A stretch of DNA of 32,000 nt from Faecalibaculum rodentium (GCF_001564455.1 NZ_CP011391.1:240001-272000), one strand, 5' to 3'. Positions 16,842-24,569 are shown, counted from the stretch's first letter. The notes: a model not told the origin generated them from the sequence alone. Program-made: numbers and translations.

Positions 16842-17159
16842 AAGCGTGTAAAGCTGATAAGGAAGAGAAGACGATAATTAGGTCATGTTTGAAACCTCAA
16901 TCTTATACTAGGTAAGTTGACTGAACCCCTCTTAGGAGTGGTGAGATTCGTCGCATATTGTGAATAATCGATAGTGACAGGAACTTTTAACCAAATTAAA
17001 ACCATGTATGGAGTAAACAGGGGAGTGAATCTTTACGATTGATATGTAAGCCTTTACGGAAATTGTACTAGAGCATCTGTGAGTATGCTATGATTATTTA
17101 TCATATCGTTTATTTCTATAGTTTTTTGATTGCTTCGATATAAGAAGGGGATTGACTTT

Positions 17160-17882
17160 ATGCTTGAAGTTTGGGAAGAAGAAGGAATGCAGGAAGAGGT
17201 TATCCATTTGGATGCCTTGGAAAAAGATATAAGCCGAGAAATCAGCCGTTTGGAATTTAGAATCCAGGGACTGGATCTAAGCTCTGCAGTCGACTATGAC
17301 GATGTGGAACGATTAAAAGACGAGAGAAGAAGATTCAAGAAATATAAAGATTCTATCTGCCTTTTGAATATACAAGCAATGGAACCATATCATGGGCGAA
17401 TAGATATGGAAGATTCGGAAACAGGGGAATTGAAACAGTTTTATATTGGTCGAGAGGATTTAACTTTTAATTATACAGACCAGCGTGTTGTTGACTGGAG
17501 ATCTCCAATGGGCAATATTTTCAGCTCTAAGAAGAAGGAGTTTCTTTTTGATGGTCGAATTCATAGATTAATTTTGAGACGAGACATAACCATCAAAAAT
17601 AAAGAGCTGAAAGAAATCAACACAAGCTTCGATATCAACAATGAGATTCTGGGCAGCGAAGTTGTAGATAAGTTTCTGTTATCAGTGCTGAAAGATAAGC
17701 GAAGAGAGAATCGGTTGACAGACATTATTCAGACAGTAAACGCTACTCAAAATGAAATCATGAGAAGGCCCTTTGAAGAAAATTTCATTGTTCAGGGCTG
17801 TGCTGGATCTGGAAAAACCATGGTACTGCTTCACCGACTATCGGTTTTAAGTTTTGAAAATCAGTATCTGGATATAGAAAAA
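17160..17882 (+). pseudogene. HelD-like (UvrD-type SF1) helicase, N-terminal fragment cut by an IS
   Basis: ATG at 17160 follows AAGAAGGGG. HelD N-domain motifs are EPYHGRID, FYIGR and VVDWRSP. Walker A VQGCAGSGKT lies at 17796-17819. As it stands, the ORF reads on into the IS and stops at 17990. Confidence 0.85.
17875..17882. repeat. Left 8-bp target-site duplication TAGAAAAA
   Basis: Identical to 19003-19010 and immediately flanks the IS terminal inverted repeat. Confidence 0.85.
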
Positions 17883-19002
17883 CTTGATAGGCTACGAAGC
17901 TCAGTAAAGCTAAGCTGCAACCAGTTGTTTCTGGACGTCTTTAAAGTAGTCGATCATACCCTGCCGGGTCTGGTGAGCACCGCTGATTAGAGTTCTTCCC
18001 AGTGATGCAAAGATACTCTTTTTCTTCCATTTCCGGCGACTCAGTTTCCACTCGAAGTCTGCTAATTCGTTCTCCAGAAACTGCAGTGCGATCCCGTGTG
18101 CAGTCCCCTGTACCTTGCTTCTGAAGTTGGAAATGATGTGATCCAGAGAGGACAGATGATCTGTATCCACTTCGAACTTTTGGGCATCCACCAGTTTGCC
18201 GGCTATATCCAGAGCCAGGTTGGCCGAACTCCGGTCACAATGCACTACACAGTCACTGGGGACTTCTTCTTCCAGAAACTTCTTCAGTTCTGCCTTATTC
18301 TCGCTGTGAACGATTCTGAATTTGACAGCATCTGTGGCTTCGAATACTTCCTCATCACCATCCATGTCGTCCCAGACATAGTGTTTGATCACAGCTGCAG
18401 CCACATTGACTTTACCTTCTGCTCCCCATCCACGCTTTCCATGCTTCTTTCCGCCATAGGAAAAGACATCCAGTTCGATCGCATCGCAATCAACGGCTAT
18501 GTGAGTTTCGTTGTCCTGCTTCTGAGCCTGTTTGATCTTGCGAAGCATGAGTTTTGTGGTGTGGTAGCTGACACCTGTCAGATCACTGATGTATTTGGCA
18601 GAAGTTCCCGTCTTGGAGATAACATAGGCGAACATCACGAGGATCCAGGAAAACAGAGGAGCCTTGGTGCTTTCCAGCGCTGTCCCGGCAGTGACAGATT
18701 CCTGATGACCACAGTGAGCGCACTGATAGACAGTTCTGAGAGAGCCGTTTTTTCGTACAACAGTCGTGTAGTGGGTATGACCGCACTTTGAGCACACAAA
18801 ACCATCCTTCCACTTCAGATCAAAGAAGAAGCGTTCTGCGTCATGGGGGTCTGAATACTGGGCATGGATATCAGCAAAAGTCAGGTCTTTGAACAGCGAT
18901 TTCTTGAACATAGGGTGCCTCTCTTCCTGATTCAAGTATCGCATTATTACTGGCGCTATTTATGCGTGATAAGCTATTAACTGAGCTTGGTAGTCTATCA
19001 AG
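17883..19002 (-). mobile_element. IS1595-family insertion sequence (1120 bp)
   Basis: Imperfect terminal inverted repeats: CTTGATAGGCTACGAAGCTCAGT on the left versus the reverse complement CTTGATAGACTACCAAGCTCAGT on the right (21 of 23). It has a single transposase gene and 8-bp direct repeats, as expected for IS1595. Confidence 0.85.
17910..18911 (-). CDS. IS1595-family transposase (N-terminal zinc ribbon plus DDE domain)
   Basis: Zinc-ribbon motif FDLKWKDGFVCSKCGH...YQCAHCGHQESVTAGTALESTKAPL, then ...IELDVFSYGGKKHGKRGWGAEGK. The MFKK start at 18911 has the RBS GGAAGAGAGG. The longer ORF starts at 18944. Confidence 0.85.
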   Translation of the reverse strand: MFKKSLFKDLTFADIHAQYSDPHDAERFFFDLKWKDGFVCSKCGHTHYTTVVRKNGSLRTVYQCAHCGHQESVTAGTALESTKAPLFSWILVMFAYVISKTGTSAKYISDLTGVSYHTTKLMLRKIKQAQKQDNETHIAVDCDAIELDVFSYGGKKHGKRGWGAEGKVNVAAAVIKHYVWDDMDGDEEVFEATDAVKFRIVHSENKAELKKFLEEEVPSDCVVHCDRSSANLALDIAGKLVDAQKFEVDTDHLSSLDHIISNFRSKVQGTAHGIALQFLENELADFEWKLSRRKWKKKSIFASLGRTLISGAHQTRQGMIDYFKDVQKQLVAA

Positions 19003-19010
19003 TAGAAAAA
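19003..19010. repeat. Right 8-bp target-site duplication TAGAAAAA
   Basis: Identical to 17875-17882. Confidence 0.85.
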
Positions 19011-21017
19011 ATCAGAGTGATAACACCAAACCCTAATTTCAGTTTATTTATAGACGAATTAAGCACCGACTTAAAGATTGGGCTGATTAAAAAACAATCC
19101 GTTGAAGAATATTACATGGATCTGGTAAAACGATTCCATTCTTCTTGGAAACCAAGTGGATCTTTAAGAACTGAGACATCACTCGATACGGAGGTTCTGG
19201 AGTATATTTACTCAATCGATTTTCAAAAAATGATTTCTAATGAGCTCAGGAAGAAATGGAAGAAATCTATAAATATCTTGACGAAATGTGGTTTTCCAGA
19301 AATTGTCAAGAACAGTGGTTTGGCTTATCCGGACATATCGGAGCCTGGTTATAAATCATTTGCAATGCTTCAAAATATGATTACTGCATTAAATGTGCAA
19401 AAGCAAAAACACCAACAGAATGCAGAAAAACTGGGTATAGAACTTAAGGCAAAAGAAAGGCAATTTGCTGTTATTCAATTTGTAGAAGTGATACTGCGGA
19501 AAAAGCTGCAAAACCAGATTACAGGCTTACATAGATTCATAGAGGATACTCTCGCAAAGAAAACTGTTGAGAGAAGAACTATTAGTATTCAGTATCCTGA
19601 TTTGCACAGAATAATAAATAAAATCAAAAAAGATATTGAAGAGGAAAAGGAGAGACTGAACCAGCTTCAATTAGAAGCATCTAAATGTGATCCGGATTCG
19701 GCTGAGAATCGTGATTTTTGGTTTAGTAGCTGTCCTGAGATGCGATCCACTTATGAGGAAATGAAATTATTGCAAGAGCAACTTAGAAAGGTTCCGGCTT
19801 ACAATTTCACAAAAAAGAACAAATTAAAGAAACGGATTTCTGTATTGTCCAATTCTCTTGATCGGACAATCCTGGTCAACATGGAAAAGCAGAGAAATGA
19901 AAAGCTTAGGGAAATTAAAAAAATAGAGGCAGATATTGAAATTAAAGAAACTGATTTTAATGGATATATCAATAAACTAAGTGAGTTGAGGACACAGTTT
20001 AATGACCTGACCAATGAAATTACCCGGCTGAATATTGCTGCAACAGGAACAATGGATAATACTTCTTTGCCTTCTCCGGAATTGTTAAAATCTATAACCC
20101 AAAATGAAGAAGTAGATAACTACAGTTCTGTGTATAAAAAATGGGTAGATATTTCTTTCGCAAGGGAAAACTTGGATTATGATTTAATCAATGAAAAGAC
20201 TGACAACTATAAAAGCGAATTAAACTGGATTCAATCGTTTATGACAGCAGAAAAGGAAGTACAGAGTCTCACATTTGATGCCTTATACAAGAATCTAGTT
20301 AAAAAAGCTATAACTAAACTTTTTTCTGAGAGTGACAAGGATAAGCGCCCAAAATCAGGATATTATCGATATAACATTTATACAGTGCTGTTCTTGTGCA
20401 GCTTGTACTATTCAACGTTGCCGGAGAAAGATATTCTTCTTTGCATTGATGAGGCACAGGATCTTTCCTTGTGTGAATATATGCTCCTTCACCACATTCA
20501 GGGGAAGAATTGCATATTTAACCTATACGGAGATGTAAACCAACTTGTGTATTCCTATAAGGGAATACCTGACTGGGAGATGCTCGAAGATATTCGAGAA
20601 TTTCAGCTCTATCAATTAAATGAAAACTACAGAAACACTAATCAGGTTACTGAATTCTGTAATGATGAATTGGATAGCGAAATAACATCAATCGGCATTT
20701 CTGGACCAGAAGTGAAGAAAATGACTATTGTCGATGCACTAAATGAACTCTATATTCAAATTCTAAGCGAGGAAGGCTCCAGAGCTGTAATCTACAGTTC
20801 CAATAACGTAACCTCGAAAAAACAAATCCAACAAATGGGTAAGGATATATGCTTCTGTCCGGGAAAGGTTGAAAAGGGAAAAATAGCCCTTTTAACTGTT
20901 GAAGAGTCGAAAGGGCTGGAGTTCCAAACTGTTCTCGTTATCCCTGAAAACATGGAATACAATGACTTGTATGTAGCATACACACGGACTTTGAACGAGC
21001 TGATCATTGGATTATGA
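19011..21017 (+). pseudogene. HelD-like helicase, C-terminal fragment (coiled-coil arm plus Walker B and 2A domains)
   Basis: It continues in frame from 17882 (…LDIEK|IRVITPNPNFSLFIDEL…). Motifs are CIDEAQD (20448-20462), YGDVNQ, NENYRNTNQV, ESKGLEFQTV and YVAYTRT. ORF 18987.. begins at a TTG inside the IS inverted repeat. Confidence 0.85.
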
Positions 21018-23593
21018 AGGATTATATTAATCAAAGATGCACTCACATACGTTACGGTTCTGGAACCATTATCAGCCAAAATTCAAAAATAATTGAAGTA
21101 ATATTCGATGATATTGGTGAAAAAAAGAAATTTGCGTATCCCTCATGCTTTGAAAAGTTTATAACTTTAGTCGATTCGGAGGTGCAATTAGCGGCTAAAA
21201 GTCAGGCAGCAGAATTGGAGAATCAGAATTTACAGCAAGCCAAAAGACGAGAAGAGGAGAAAAGAGCTCAACAGTTTCGAGAGCGTCATGAGGATGAATT
21301 GAAAGAAATGTTTGATATTCCTCAATATGAAACTTTATCGAGTTTTTCCAACCATTTTAAATCATTGGTTTTAGACGAAATTCAAAGCGTACGAATGCAT
21401 CCCAAGCGAAAGTATAAACTGAGGGATGGGAGGCTTATAAAACGGCAGGGTGGAGAGTACATTTATTCTTATGACTTGGAGGATAATCTTCAGCTTCCTG
21501 AAGATCAGGTAATTAATTTGTATATCAGTGCAAATGGAATATATATAGTTAATGATTTTGCTCGGGTCATTTCCTGCGAAGACTTCGAAATCACATTCAG
21601 TACTCTTGTAGATTTATCAGCTAATCTGAAGGTATTGGAAATCTCTTCGAGCCTGACGTGGCTATTGGAAGCTACAGTTGAACGACTTGAAGAATTAAGT
21701 GAGAGCCATTCTCCTATTGCTACAGAATTGGTTACTGCTGGAAAAAAACACATCATCAATGATAATTCGTTGATATGTATAGGGCAGGATACAGCAAGAG
21801 AAATGGCAACTCATCAACAAATAACATTTATTTGGGGGCCGCCAGGAACTGGAAAAACTGAGGTACTTGCACGAATTGGGAGTGATCATTTGAAACAAAA
21901 TCATCGAATTCTCCTAGTTTCTACAGCCAATACTGCGGTTGATGGAGCAGCCTTACGACTGATACGGATGGGCGACAAAGATAGTTTTTCCCCAGGCCAA
22001 ATTATCCGGTATGGGTTTCCCAAAGATCGTGCAGTCACCGAACACCCGTATTTATGGGTACAAACACTTCTGGAAACCAGATATCCTGAAGTATTTGCCA
22101 GGAAAAAGAAACTGATAGAGTTGCGTAAAGATGCATCCAATACAGATGATCATATAAAAGCAGAACTTAGCAAAATAAATCTATACATTAAAGAGTTGAC
22201 AGCCGGTATTGTGGAAAATGCACAGTTTATAGCTACATCTATAGCCAAAGCTAAAACGGACAAACTAATTTGCAAACCAGGAAACTTCGATGTAGTGATT
22301 TTCGATGAAATTTCTATGGCATTGATTCCGGAAGTTGCAATCCTTGCAAACTTATGTAAGAAAACGTTCATTGGAATCGGTGATTTCCGGCAGCTGGCTC
22401 CTATTGCTCAATCTGGAGAAATACATAATGAATTAATCAGTGACATGTTTAACTATTGCGGTATCCATCAAGCTGTGGATAGTGGCTGCAGTCATGAATG
22501 GTTATGTATGCTGGATACACAATATAGAATGCATAGGGATATTGCGACTTTCATTTCTCGAAGCTCATATAAAAATAAGCTCAAAACAGCAACTGGGATT
22601 AGTGAAAAACGAATAATAGGAATAGAATCTAAGCCGTTATCAGGATTTCCAGTTGGGATTCTTGATTTATCAGGAATGATGACTGTATGTAGACAAACAG
22701 CCGAAAAATCAAGATTCAATATATTATCTGCTTTTATTTCTGTTATACAGATTATTCAGGCAAAAGAATGTGTTACATTGGGAATCATTACTCCATATAA
22801 TGCACAATCGAGATTGTTGAAGGCCATTACACGTGATTTAGAAGATAATGGCTTTGAAAAATCATTATTAGAGTGCAGTACAGTACATAGCTTTCAGGGG
22901 TCTGAAAAAGACATAATACTGTTTGATTTGGTTGAATGCTACCTAATGCCTAGTCCAGGGGTTCTTGTAACCGGTATAACAAATGGAACCGCCAATCGGC
23001 TGTTTAATGTAGCTATGTCACGAGCTAAATGCAAATTTATCTGTGTAGCAAATTTGCTCTATTTGAGCAGAAAAAAGTTAAGCCGAAAGCTGGCGTTAAC
23101 TGATTTCATTCATCGACTAAAATCAGAAGCGTATACCCCAGAAATGTACCTTAATACAGCTTTTACAGATTATTATGGTTTTTCAATTTTCACTGATTCC
23201 CGGTCTGCAACCAGACGATTCTTTCAGGACATAAAAAGCGCAAAGAAAACTGTGTATCTGGATATCCCGGATCCTATAAATAAAAGAAATTCATATAGTC
23301 CGCTTGTCGAGGTACTTTTCGACTATAGAGATCATGTGAAAACTACTATACGAGCCCAAAATGTCGAGAATCTTCCGGAAGAGTTTCAAAAACTGAAGCC
23401 TATTGAAGATCGATATAATCCAAGAGACCCGATTGCAATTATTGATGATCATATTCTTTGGTATGGACAGCCTTTGACGGACTCGGCCTTCCTCATAGGC
23501 GATAAAGTAGAACCTGCTTTATACAGGCCTATAATTCGATTCACAGGGAAGCATACAATTGCCCTTCTTTATGATTTTCTCCATATCGAGTAA
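21014..23593 (+). CDS. Upf1/DNA2-type SF1 helicase (AAA_11/AAA_12-like) with N-terminal Tudor-like motif and C-terminal PLD-like domain
   Basis: ATGA overlap with the upstream gene. Motifs are GPPGTGKT (21836-21859), VVIFDEIS, GDFRQLAP, DTQYRMH, ITPYNAQ, TVHSFQGSEKD and NVAMSRAK. Confidence 0.85.
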   Translation: MKDYINQRCTHIRYGSGTIISQNSKIIEVIFDDIGEKKKFAYPSCFEKFITLVDSEVQLAAKSQAAELENQNLQQAKRREEEKRAQQFRERHEDELKEMFDIPQYETLSSFSNHFKSLVLDEIQSVRMHPKRKYKLRDGRLIKRQGGEYIYSYDLEDNLQLPEDQVINLYISANGIYIVNDFARVISCEDFEITFSTLVDLSANLKVLEISSSLTWLLEATVERLEELSESHSPIATELVTAGKKHIINDNSLICIGQDTAREMATHQQITFIWGPPGTGKTEVLARIGSDHLKQNHRILLVSTANTAVDGAALRLIRMGDKDSFSPGQIIRYGFPKDRAVTEHPYLWVQTLLETRYPEVFARKKKLIELRKDASNTDDHIKAELSKINLYIKELTAGIVENAQFIATSIAKAKTDKLICKPGNFDVVIFDEISMALIPEVAILANLCKKTFIGIGDFRQLAPIAQSGEIHNELISDMFNYCGIHQAVDSGCSHEWLCMLDTQYRMHRDIATFISRSSYKNKLKTATGISEKRIIGIESKPLSGFPVGILDLSGMMTVCRQTAEKSRFNILSAFISVIQIIQAKECVTLGIITPYNAQSRLLKAITRDLEDNGFEKSLLECSTVHSFQGSEKDIILFDLVECYLMPSPGVLVTGITNGTANRLFNVAMSRAKCKFICVANLLYLSRKKLSRKLALTDFIHRLKSEAYTPEMYLNTAFTDYYGFSIFTDSRSATRRFFQDIKSAKKTVYLDIPDPINKRNSYSPLVEVLFDYRDHVKTTIRAQNVENLPEEFQKLKPIEDRYNPRDPIAIIDDHILWYGQPLTDSAFLIGDKVEPALYRPIIRFTGKHTIALLYDFLHIE

Positions 23594-23606
23594 TTGAGAA
23601 GATAAT

Positions 23607-23653
23607 AAAGCTGCAGCCTTCCCCTGTACCGGGTGAAAGCCGCAGCTTTTTTT
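23607..23653. terminator. Bidirectional terminator between the helicase gene and fda
   Basis: AAAGCTGCAGC (23607-23617) pairs with GCCGCAGCTTT (23639-23649) with one mismatch, followed by a T7 run. The A/T-rich tract upstream serves the minus strand. Confidence 0.6.
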
Positions 23654-23684
23654 CATGTGTCGGATGGAATACGTGTGTCAGACT

Positions 23685-24569
23685 CTACGCAATGGATGCT
23701 TCGTAGATCGACTGGATGCTGTCGTCCATCATTTTGTCGAAGGCTTCCTCTGTCTGATTTGCGTTCAGCCCCTCGGACAGTGCCCTGGAGAAGCTGGCAA
23801 TCAGGCCGGGGTTCTTCTTCAGCAGCTCGTTGGCTTCCTTGCGGGAGTAGCCGCCGGAAAGAGCCACGATCCGGACAACATGGGGATCCTTCATGAGTTC
23901 TGTGTAGAGACCGGGTTTCGTGGGGATGGACAGCTTCAGCATGATCTTTGTGTCTGCCGGCAGCTTTTCCAGTTCTTTCTGGATGTCCTTCAGGAGAAGG
24001 TCCTCGGCTTCGGCTTTGTCCGCAATGGTGATGTCCACCTCGGGTTCCAGAATGGGCACCAGCCCTGCATCGGCAATCTGTTTTCCGATCTCAAACTGCT
24101 GCCTGACGATTTCCTCGATGCCCTTCGGGTTGGCGGCGTGGATCACAGAACGCATCTTGGTTCCGAAAATGTGCTTGCCCTTTGCCTTCTCCAGCGTCTG
24201 GGCCAGATTGGGGATGGGTTTCATGAGCTGCACGCCGTCTTTCTCCGGCTCCAGCCCCTTGTCGACTTTCAGGAACGGGATGACGCCTTTTTCTTCCCAC
24301 AGGAAGTCCGCGGTGTCTTTTCCGTCCACCTGACGGTCCATGGTGTTTTCAAACAGGATCGCTCCCAGGATCCGGCTGTCAAAGGACGGGGACTTCATCA
24401 TGCGGGTCCGCATTTCATGCATGAGATCATACATTTCCTCGTCGGTTTTCCAGGCATCCGATGTGATTCCGTAGCGTTCCAGTGCCTTCGGGGAGCTGCC
24501 GCCGGACTGGTCGAGTGCCGCAATGAAGCCCTGGCCGTCGGACATACGTTCAAGCTGTTTCTGGTTCAT
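23685..24569 (-). CDS. fda: Fructose-bisphosphate aldolase, class I
   Basis: [30 protein letters not shown]...FLKVDKGL...GTKMRS...ILEPEV...LSGGYSR closely parallels staphylococcal Fda as I recall it. Confidence 0.95.

Follow-up and report, generated by a model that had tools for sequence, protein, structure and literature searches.

The subject of this report is a low-GC island in a 32,000-nucleotide stretch of the Faecalibaculum rodentium genome (GCF_001564455.1, NZ_CP011391.1:240001-272000), which we call the window and from whose first letter all positions are counted. Apart from an insertion sequence (IS), the cargo of this island is two helicase genes only, hereafter A and B. Gene A encodes a HelD-like protein and is interrupted by the IS. 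Gene B (21014-23593, plus strand, 859 aa; WP_067554489) is annotated as an 'AAA domain-containing protein' and encodes an Upf1-like helicase. The ATG of B overlaps the TGA of A as ATGA at 21014-21017 and, when the sequence is read, no ribosome-binding site specific to B stands out. Thus, B may depend on the translation of A. We computed the fold and family assignments of the two proteins, the coupling of their genes, the recurrence of their pairing, and their defence-island neighbourhoods. The features of the island are as follows.

16702-23606, no strand: low-GC strain-specific island, delimited by empty-site alleles (L177-L182) that align only to window 16615-16701 and 23607-23737
17160-17882, plus strand: 5' part of gene A (residues 1-241), with the HelD-type secondary-channel-arm coiled coil, DWRSP, and Walker A
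17883-19002, minus strand: IS1595-family element interrupting gene A, recognized by its inverted repeats, 8-bp duplication, and Pfam and NCBIfam IS1595 matches
19011-21017, plus strand: 3' part of gene A (residues 242-909 and stop), with the coiled-coil arm, motif II, GDVNQ, YRNT, and an unsplit 2A domain
21014-21181, plus strand: predicted Tudor-like beta-barrel of B (residues 1-56), five strands, predicted local distance difference test (pLDDT) score 81-89
21176-21646, plus strand: long helix (55-128) and beta-barrel (133-211) ahead of the helicase core of B, as modelled
21776-23113, plus strand: Upf1-like superfamily 1B (SF1B) helicase core of B (residues ~255-700), from Pfam AAA_11 and AAA_12, MkoA, and Foldseek matches
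23156-23593, plus strand: phospholipase D (PLD)-like domain of B (residues ~715-859 and stop), from a NucT profile match

The island is set apart by its composition, with a GC content of 0.34-0.38 over ~17-23 kb against 0.53-0.61 in the flanks (GC profile of the window). It measures 6905 bp, or ~5777 bp after subtracting the IS and one target-site repeat, and lies between a PhoR-like histidine-kinase gene and a class I aldolase gene, whose products both match named F. rodentium proteins exactly. The insertion point falls after the kinase stop codon and before a hairpin terminator that is common to the kinase and aldolase genes in island-free strains. Among 25 contigs read with the same response regulator, the kinase gene was directly followed by the aldolase gene at all six long places shown. 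The island is absent from most F. rodentium assemblies and is carried by a minority of strains. It contains no integrase and no obvious attachment repeat, and no further open reading frame (ORF) of >=60 aa was found in it outside A, B, and the IS, except for frames overlapping those. A third small gene was considered and rejected, as the 460-bp leader holds only ORFs of <=40 aa. The promoter scan of this leader gave a number of sites no higher than in shuffled sequence, and the Rfam scan found no RNA element in the window.

In our reading, the island is a cassette of two genes that was acquired by horizontal transfer. Its borders are 93% (left, 16615-16701) and 79% (right, 23607-23737) identical to the island-free alleles and, given these values, the island may have come with divergent flanking DNA via homologous recombination. 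A phage origin was rejected, since IMG/VR held no B relatives and, for A, weak UvrD-type matches only. Searches for a plasmid origin gave no more than helD genes of the canonical type and distant SF1 helicases. A second variable spot occurs near the island site, ~8-10 kb upstream of the response-regulator gene, where F. rodentium strains differ (L178/L181/L182 1-2755 versus L177/L179/L180 1-2753): some strains have a group II intron reverse transcriptase and a Flg_new protein, and others have MatE, an HTH protein, and a DUF6591 protein instead.

The IS is 1120 bp long. Its 27-nt inverted repeats lie at 17882-17908 and 18977-19003, and an 8-bp target duplication, TAGAAAAA, is found at 17875-17882 and 19003-19010. 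The transposase ORF (17910-18944, minus strand, 344 aa) matches Zn_ribbon_IS1595, DDE_Tnp_IS1595, and the NCBIfam model transpos_IS1595. Removing the IS and one repeat copy restored a 909-aa gene A ORF from the ATG at 17160, and the reconstructed protein was 100% identical to P0121, a protein that other assemblies encode intact. In one of these, L001, the same A-B operon adjoins the same aldolase gene. Intact A was recorded on >20 contigs, and fragments from IS-split alleles on about a dozen, with lengths of 248, 276, 666, and 676 aa in several assemblies. In the window, A is annotated as two fragments and, with A split by the IS, this copy of the module has probably lost its activity. L001 also carries the same IS1595-family element (L001 1-139), ending at window position 17089/17090, ~70 bp before the start codon of A. 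As this position differs from that of the window copy, the island was struck at least twice, by independent insertions.

The disruption of A in the window, the IS-split fragments in several assemblies, and the IS lying 70 bp upstream of A in another strain are what one would see if the cassette were a decaying remnant without present function in the species. We hold this to be very improbable in view of the intact 909-aa A and 859-aa B present on >20 contigs, in which all ATPase motifs are conserved. Full-length relatives are, moreover, numerous, those of B forming 1088 clusters at E<=1e-30.

The HelD-family assignment of A came from both profile and structure searches. A profile of the A family (20 members) matched B. 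subtilis HelD first in PDB (6wvk_H, E 6.6e-55), in two blocks that span HelD residues 4-297 and 390-753. Next came M. smegmatis HelD at 1.9e-22, and UvrD/PcrA reached only 1e-9. When the AlphaFold model of A (m71242b3bb548, pLDDT 81) was compared with PDB by Foldseek, ranks 1-6 were all HelD-RNA polymerase complexes (1.9e-20 to 3.5e-15), and the ordinary SF1A helicases UvrD/PcrA scored ~1e-6.

The architecture of A follows that of class I HelD, the RNA polymerase recycling motor of B. subtilis (PDB 6WVK, 6ZCA), whose layout and motif definitions, including the DWR[A/S]P Trp-cage, are given in PMC7749167 and PMC8655204. They share the acidic-tipped coiled coil, the DWR[A/S]P motif, an arm that interrupts the 1A domain, a continuous 2A domain, and ATPase motifs that are intact. 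In the model of A, the N-terminal antiparallel coiled coil is made of helices 8-37 and 46-74. Its acidic tip, DYDD (residues 45-48, 17292-17303), aligns in the profile alignment to the NFDD segment of HelD, which holds D56/D57. The DWRSP motif occupies residues 112-116 (within 17487-17507) and, among the 20 family members, W113 is invariant and R114 nearly so; in the HelD N-terminal domain, DWR[A/S]P is described as absolutely conserved (PMC8655204). Walker A (GCAGSGKT, residues 213-220, within 17790-17819) and motif II (DEAQD, residues 721-725, within 20442-20462) are separated by the inserted arm, a coiled coil of ~400 residues (~19185-20357) with modelled helices 355-465 and 507-589, that is, of 110 and 83 residues. 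This arm splits the 1A domain, and the 2A domain is continuous.

In contrast with these shared features, the arm of A stands in the place of a HelD clamp arm of 247 residues, identity to HelD is ~16% in the structural alignment, and A, unlike HelD, is an accessory-island gene coupled to a second helicase. Because the long arm differs and the scores of A are far under the NCBIfam equivalog cut-offs (64-66 bits for the HelR models, with cut-offs of 750-1100, and likewise for HelD), A is not an orthologue of characterized HelD or HelR. It is a divergent member of the HelD family.

Matches of A and B to GajB, RecD, and Dda were rejected, since they reflect only common helicase motifs. For Gabija, the GajB models match A partially (best 7.7e-14) via common SF1A motifs and over ~130 residues only, whereas the HelD-specific N-terminal domain is not in the GajB models. 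Gabija also needs the GajA OLD nuclease, and none is present in the island, which holds A, B, and the IS only.

We also noticed a short segment of A, DSETGEL (residues 85-91, 17412-17432), which lies on a predicted beta-hairpin. It fits the core D-x-x-T-G-E-[VIL] of the 'helicase interaction motif' by which RpoB and UvrB bind the PcrA Tudor domain (PMC8318588). This core pattern is rare, with two other matches in 360 related proteins, neither at that site. Its flanking positions misfit, the solo relative P0123 has SDTGEL there, and the paired proteins of the L107 type described below are without it. A helicase interaction motif in A is thus an idea only.

Gene B carries the core motifs GPPGTGKT, DEIS, GDFRQLAP, QYRMH, FQGSEKD, and MSRAK. 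NCBIfam places B in the IGHMBP2 family, and the PADLOC model PDLC03920 (MkoA) matches it at 3e-58, B residues 52-703 corresponding to model positions 405-1098 of 1112. The best Foldseek matches of the B model (pLDDT 71) were SETX/Sen1, Upf1, IGHMBP2, Dna2, and ZNFX1, with SETX/Upf1/IGHMBP2 at 1e-27 to 1e-25. The eukaryotic SF1B RNA helicases Sen1/SETX and Upf1 thus have their helicase core in common with B and, in the model, the helix and beta-barrel before the core of B resemble their accessory stalk and barrel. Sequence identity is, however, 18-20%, and the terminal domains differ. By analogy only, one might infer a termination-like role for B.

A preliminary description of the locus had reported an AT-rich island with two helicase genes as its only cargo, an ATGA stop/start overlap, an A protein of about 909 aa once the IS is removed, and the HelD-like and Upf1/DNA2-type nature of A and B, respectively. 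The ORF survey and GC profile, the overlap at 21014-21017, the identity of the reconstruction to P0121, and the profile and fold searches bear out these points, and every motif string that had been quoted for A and B is present at its place.

That description had also likened the start of B to the RNA polymerase-binding Tudor domain of PcrA/UvrD. A profile of the N-terminal segment of B ranked UvrD/PcrA Tudor domains first in PDB, but only at E 0.0016-0.0028, and the Pfam matches, detailed below, are under threshold, so that the likeness is weakly supported. We consider a PcrA/UvrD-type Tudor-like domain at the N-terminus of B likely but unproven. Its position would differ from that in PcrA/UvrD, where the Tudor domain is C-terminal on an SF1A helicase, whereas in B it stands at the N-terminus of an SF1B helicase.

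At the other end of B, the profile of the last 145 residues matches the PLD nuclease NucT (6ehi) at 1.7e-5. The NucT segment MNQKVAIIDD (as deposited), which spans the motif Lys, aligns to VtnPiaiiD in the B family and to RDPIAIIDD in B. We suspect that the Asn in the deposited NucT chain stands for the catalytic His. In the B family, Pro806 is invariant at the motif Lys position, the motif His and Lys are replaced, and GSxN is absent. Judging from these residues, the C-terminal domain of B is PLD-like without the HxK...D...GSxN signature, and catalytically degenerate. Since the catalytic residues are lacking, it is probably used for binding or dimerization and not for cleavage.

These features bring B close to Mokosh, in which an MkoA helicase acts with an MkoB PLD nuclease, the two being fused as MkoC in type II. 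The Mokosh helicase is of the MkoA type (COG1112), as in B, and the MkoC model extends ~170 positions past the helicase, where B has its PLD-fold domain. In contrast, the Mokosh PLD has the HKD motif and the PLD-like domain of B is without its His and Lys, no MkoB gene is present in the island, and the first ~400 positions of the MkoA model have no counterpart in B. A Tudor-like N-terminus and a HelD-like partner further distinguish B from Mokosh. On the grounds of the MkoA match and of the C-terminal PLD-like domain without HxK, B alone resembles a degenerate type II Mokosh protein, whose domain order it has. The preliminary description had cited Mokosh only as a system with another pairing, and the strong MkoA match and the PLD-like domain, which it had overlooked, correct it on this point. 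Hhe and the PADLOC candidate PDC-S37 (DUF4011-helicase-MTES_1575) likewise join a COG1112-type helicase to a nuclease-type C-terminal domain. Yet Pfam finds neither DUF4011 nor an MTES_1575 or Vsr-type endonuclease domain in B, and PDC-S37 matches B only around Walker A (residues 260-316, E 4.8e-6).

As had been supposed, the A-B pair matched no named system in PADLOC 2.0, Pfam, NCBIfam, and PHROGs scans. The literature searched showed no link between HelD and phage defence, and nothing useful on the Mokosh mechanism or 'PLuB'.

The pairing of a HelD-like with a B-like gene is not confined to the window. In a separate HelD-like subfamily, a B-like gene lies directly upstream of the A-like gene in 3/3 sampled lineages, which is the reverse of the window order. 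In L107/L108, the B-like gene encodes 845 aa, with 35% identity to B, and is followed, after a 17-nt spacer with an AGGGAG ribosome-binding site, by an A-like gene of 890 aa. In L185-187, a B-like gene of 827 aa overlaps an A-like gene of 959 aa by 8 bp, and the L184 contig opens inside a B-like gene, of which the last 80 residues are present, with an A-like gene directly downstream. The partners have diverged in parallel within this L107-type subfamily, A-like proteins being 48.5% and B-like proteins 61% identical. The paired B-type proteins are all without the two Top1-type zinc ribbons that are present in unpaired relatives and in the outgroups L006 and L007. These ribbons are also found in the closest B relatives, a large family of 965-991-aa proteins that are 37-40% identical to B. 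The closest A relatives are 30-34% identical, and many have a C-terminal SF2 helicase module. As for an A-B fusion protein, none was found among the best 150 B representatives, and the C-terminal extension of the 1479-aa P0471 is unrelated.

Several results weigh against reading A and B as a joint module directed at RNA polymerase. A scores 91.4 bits with the NCBIfam HelD_BACSU equivalog and does not reach the cut-off of 419. Pfam PcrA_UvrD_tudor (PF21196) matches 10/12 B family members, all below threshold (best E 0.0011), and B itself obtains 14 bits for a cut-off of 23.9. No catalytic effector domain was found. The closest B relative, P0002 (39% identical), is without an A-like partner, and the closest A relative, P0123 (32% identical), is without a B-like partner. 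None of the 79 B-like reference-genome loci, which are <=29% identical to B, short local matches aside, has an A-like neighbour and, of 80 A-like loci from metagenomes, L107 and L108 alone include a B-family gene. Lastly, in neighbour-joining trees, the window A lies within an A family whose members are mostly unpaired, and the L107 subfamily branches as a deep clade of its own. Since the window A and the L107-type A-like proteins thus belong to separate HelD-like clades, the two pairings may be independent, and their mechanism need not be common; these trees do not separate ancestral pairing from independent pairings. The preliminary description had raised the question of whether a HelD-like gene is the conserved upstream neighbour of B homologues, and for the nearest relatives of A and B, which are unpaired, the answer is no. 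What stands is that the pairing recurs, in reversed order and in another subfamily.

It follows that A and B might be independent single-gene defence (or selfish) genes, namely a stand-alone HelD-like A and a degenerate type II Mokosh-like B, adjacent by defence-island clustering and not interacting. Indeed, each family is mostly found without the other, B relatives occur as single genes between unrelated systems, and PADLOC handles the similar large helicases PDC-S37 and Hhe as single-gene systems. Chance adjacency is, however, difficult to reconcile with an island made of A and B and, the IS aside, nothing else, in which the two genes share an ATGA overlap. Moreover, the second lineage holds the pair tightly linked in 3/3 samples despite 48-68% divergence, and the paired B forms are consistently without the zinc-ribbon tail. 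We therefore deem independent action unlikely, if a serious contender.

Whether the two genes reside in defence islands had been raised with the preliminary description, and both families do occur in defence-type neighbourhoods. B relatives stand alone after a type I restriction-modification (R-M) system and McrBC, or after BREX PglZ/BrxL, GmrSD, and an SF2 helicase. Others are flanked by an SNF2 helicase on one side and a type III-like R-M system on the other, or adjoin HNH and polymorphic-toxin genes. A relatives are found alone beside an integrase or relaxase, or within larger clusters that include BrxC-like, cysteine-desulfurase, and PLD genes. Both families behave like defence genes, as seen in their accessory islands, their R-M/BREX/McrBC neighbourhoods, their modular and variable architectures, the strain-restricted island, and the repeated IS disruption.

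Other HelD-like genes have a different kind of helicase neighbour. In L095, L153, and the L131 group (seven loci: L131, L137, L140, L142, L151, L155, and L157), they adjoin very large same-strand genes for DUF4011-AAA_11/12-MTES_1575 helicase-nucleases, which match PADLOC PDC-S37 (E = 0) and Hhe. The loci joining a HelD-like gene to a PDC-S37/Hhe-type gene are as follows.

L095 2886-11354: HelD-like and PDC-S37/Hhe-type genes, with a 33-bp gap
L153 2845-8612: HelD-like and PDC-S37/Hhe-type genes
L131 7647-16588: HelD-like and PDC-S37/Hhe-type genes, with an 837-bp gap (L131 group)

This adjacency parallels the A-B arrangement. On the side of B, a zinc-ribbon B-family gene directly follows a same-strand 1074-aa SNF2 helicase gene in L169 (4755-10913), and another directly follows a same-strand 751-aa MTES_1575-ResIII-Helicase_C gene in L172 (5648-10904). 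Two-helicase arrangements may be common for the B family.

The Tudor-like N-terminal segment of the B family is also present on 350-369-aa proteins near A-like genes in L173 and L123. The L173 cluster (1-16381) comprises a BrxC-like gene, a gene for a DUF7862-7864 protein, BrxL, a cysteine desulfurase, and then a 921-aa A-family gene. Downstream come a 666-aa gene, a gene for a 350-aa protein (12832-13884) that at its N-terminus matches the Tudor-like segment of the B family at 1.3e-8, and a DUF2779 gene. In L175 and L176 (1-12377), an A-family protein of 1352-1458 aa, with a HelD-like part and a C-terminal SF2 Helicase_C, is encoded at the end of a tightly packed operon of six genes. A BrxC/PglY-like ATPase comes first, then an Aminotran_5 cysteine desulfurase, a DEAD/ResIII helicase, an HATPase_c protein, a PLDc_2 protein, and the A-like gene; L087, L088, and L101 have the same layout. 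This operon looks like an undescribed BREX- or phosphorothioate-related system.

In another explanation to be weighed, the cassette would maintain transcription or protect RNA polymerase. As a HelR/HelD-like module, it would rescue the enzyme from rifamycin-like inhibitors, or clear transcription-replication conflicts and R-loops, and the island would be an accessory fitness island and not an immune one. To our knowledge, the only roles described for HelD and HelR are in housekeeping or in protection from antibiotics, and Sen1 and SETX, the best folds for B, are known as RNA/R-loop helicases. Published work describes the recycling of stalled RNA polymerase by HelD and protection against rifampicin by HelR and B. 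subtilis HelD (PMC7749167, PMC10719064, PMC12802891). The PcrA Tudor domain also acts on RNA polymerase, suppressing R-loops (PMC8318588). Yet both families lie in defence-island and mobile-element neighbourhoods, B groups with the Mokosh MkoA model and not with housekeeping helicases, the island is absent from most strains and was repeatedly struck by IS, and the enlarged arm of A departs from characterized HelD and HelR. All in all, we find a role in polymerase protection quite improbable.

The explanation that we favour, and to which we give about an even chance, is that A and B form an unnamed two-helicase defence module directed against phages or other mobile elements and acting at transcription complexes. 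By analogy with HelD, A would engage RNA polymerase by inserting its acidic-tipped N-terminal coiled coil into the secondary channel, and would use ATP and its ~400-residue second arm to open the polymerase, such that nucleic acids are released. B, an Upf1/Sen1-like 5'-3' helicase of the Mokosh MkoA lineage, would be tethered by its Tudor-like N-terminus to RNA polymerase or to A, and its motor would act on nascent RNA, R-loops, or displaced DNA. The joint effect of A and B would be to break up or block the transcription of invading DNA, or to halt transcription upon polymerase hijack.

The steps of this scheme differ in strength. Because the HelD-specific N-terminal domain is conserved, A probably binds RNA polymerase. 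The Tudor-like domain of B might conceivably bind RNA polymerase or A. We infer a contact between A and B, a trigger, and an outcome; as nothing points to a catalytic effector, transcription complexes would be released or blocked, and nucleic acids would not be cleaved. On the whole, describing the pair as an undescribed RNA polymerase-directed defence module is plausible but unproven.

More broadly, HelD-type motors could recurrently serve as modular partners for immune proteins of the Upf1-like helicase(-nuclease) kind, be it the Mokosh-like B, the Hhe/PDC-S37-type proteins, or the BREX-like clusters. They would then make up an unrecognized class of defence, in which host RNA polymerase is used as a platform to detect or abort the transcription of foreign DNA. 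We put this generalization forward as a tentative and rather doubtful one. The pair is small and intact alleles exist, which makes it directly testable. If HelD-like proteins are immune components, RNA polymerase would be a surveillance platform in bacterial immunity, and the poorly understood Mokosh-type helicases would gain a mechanistic context.

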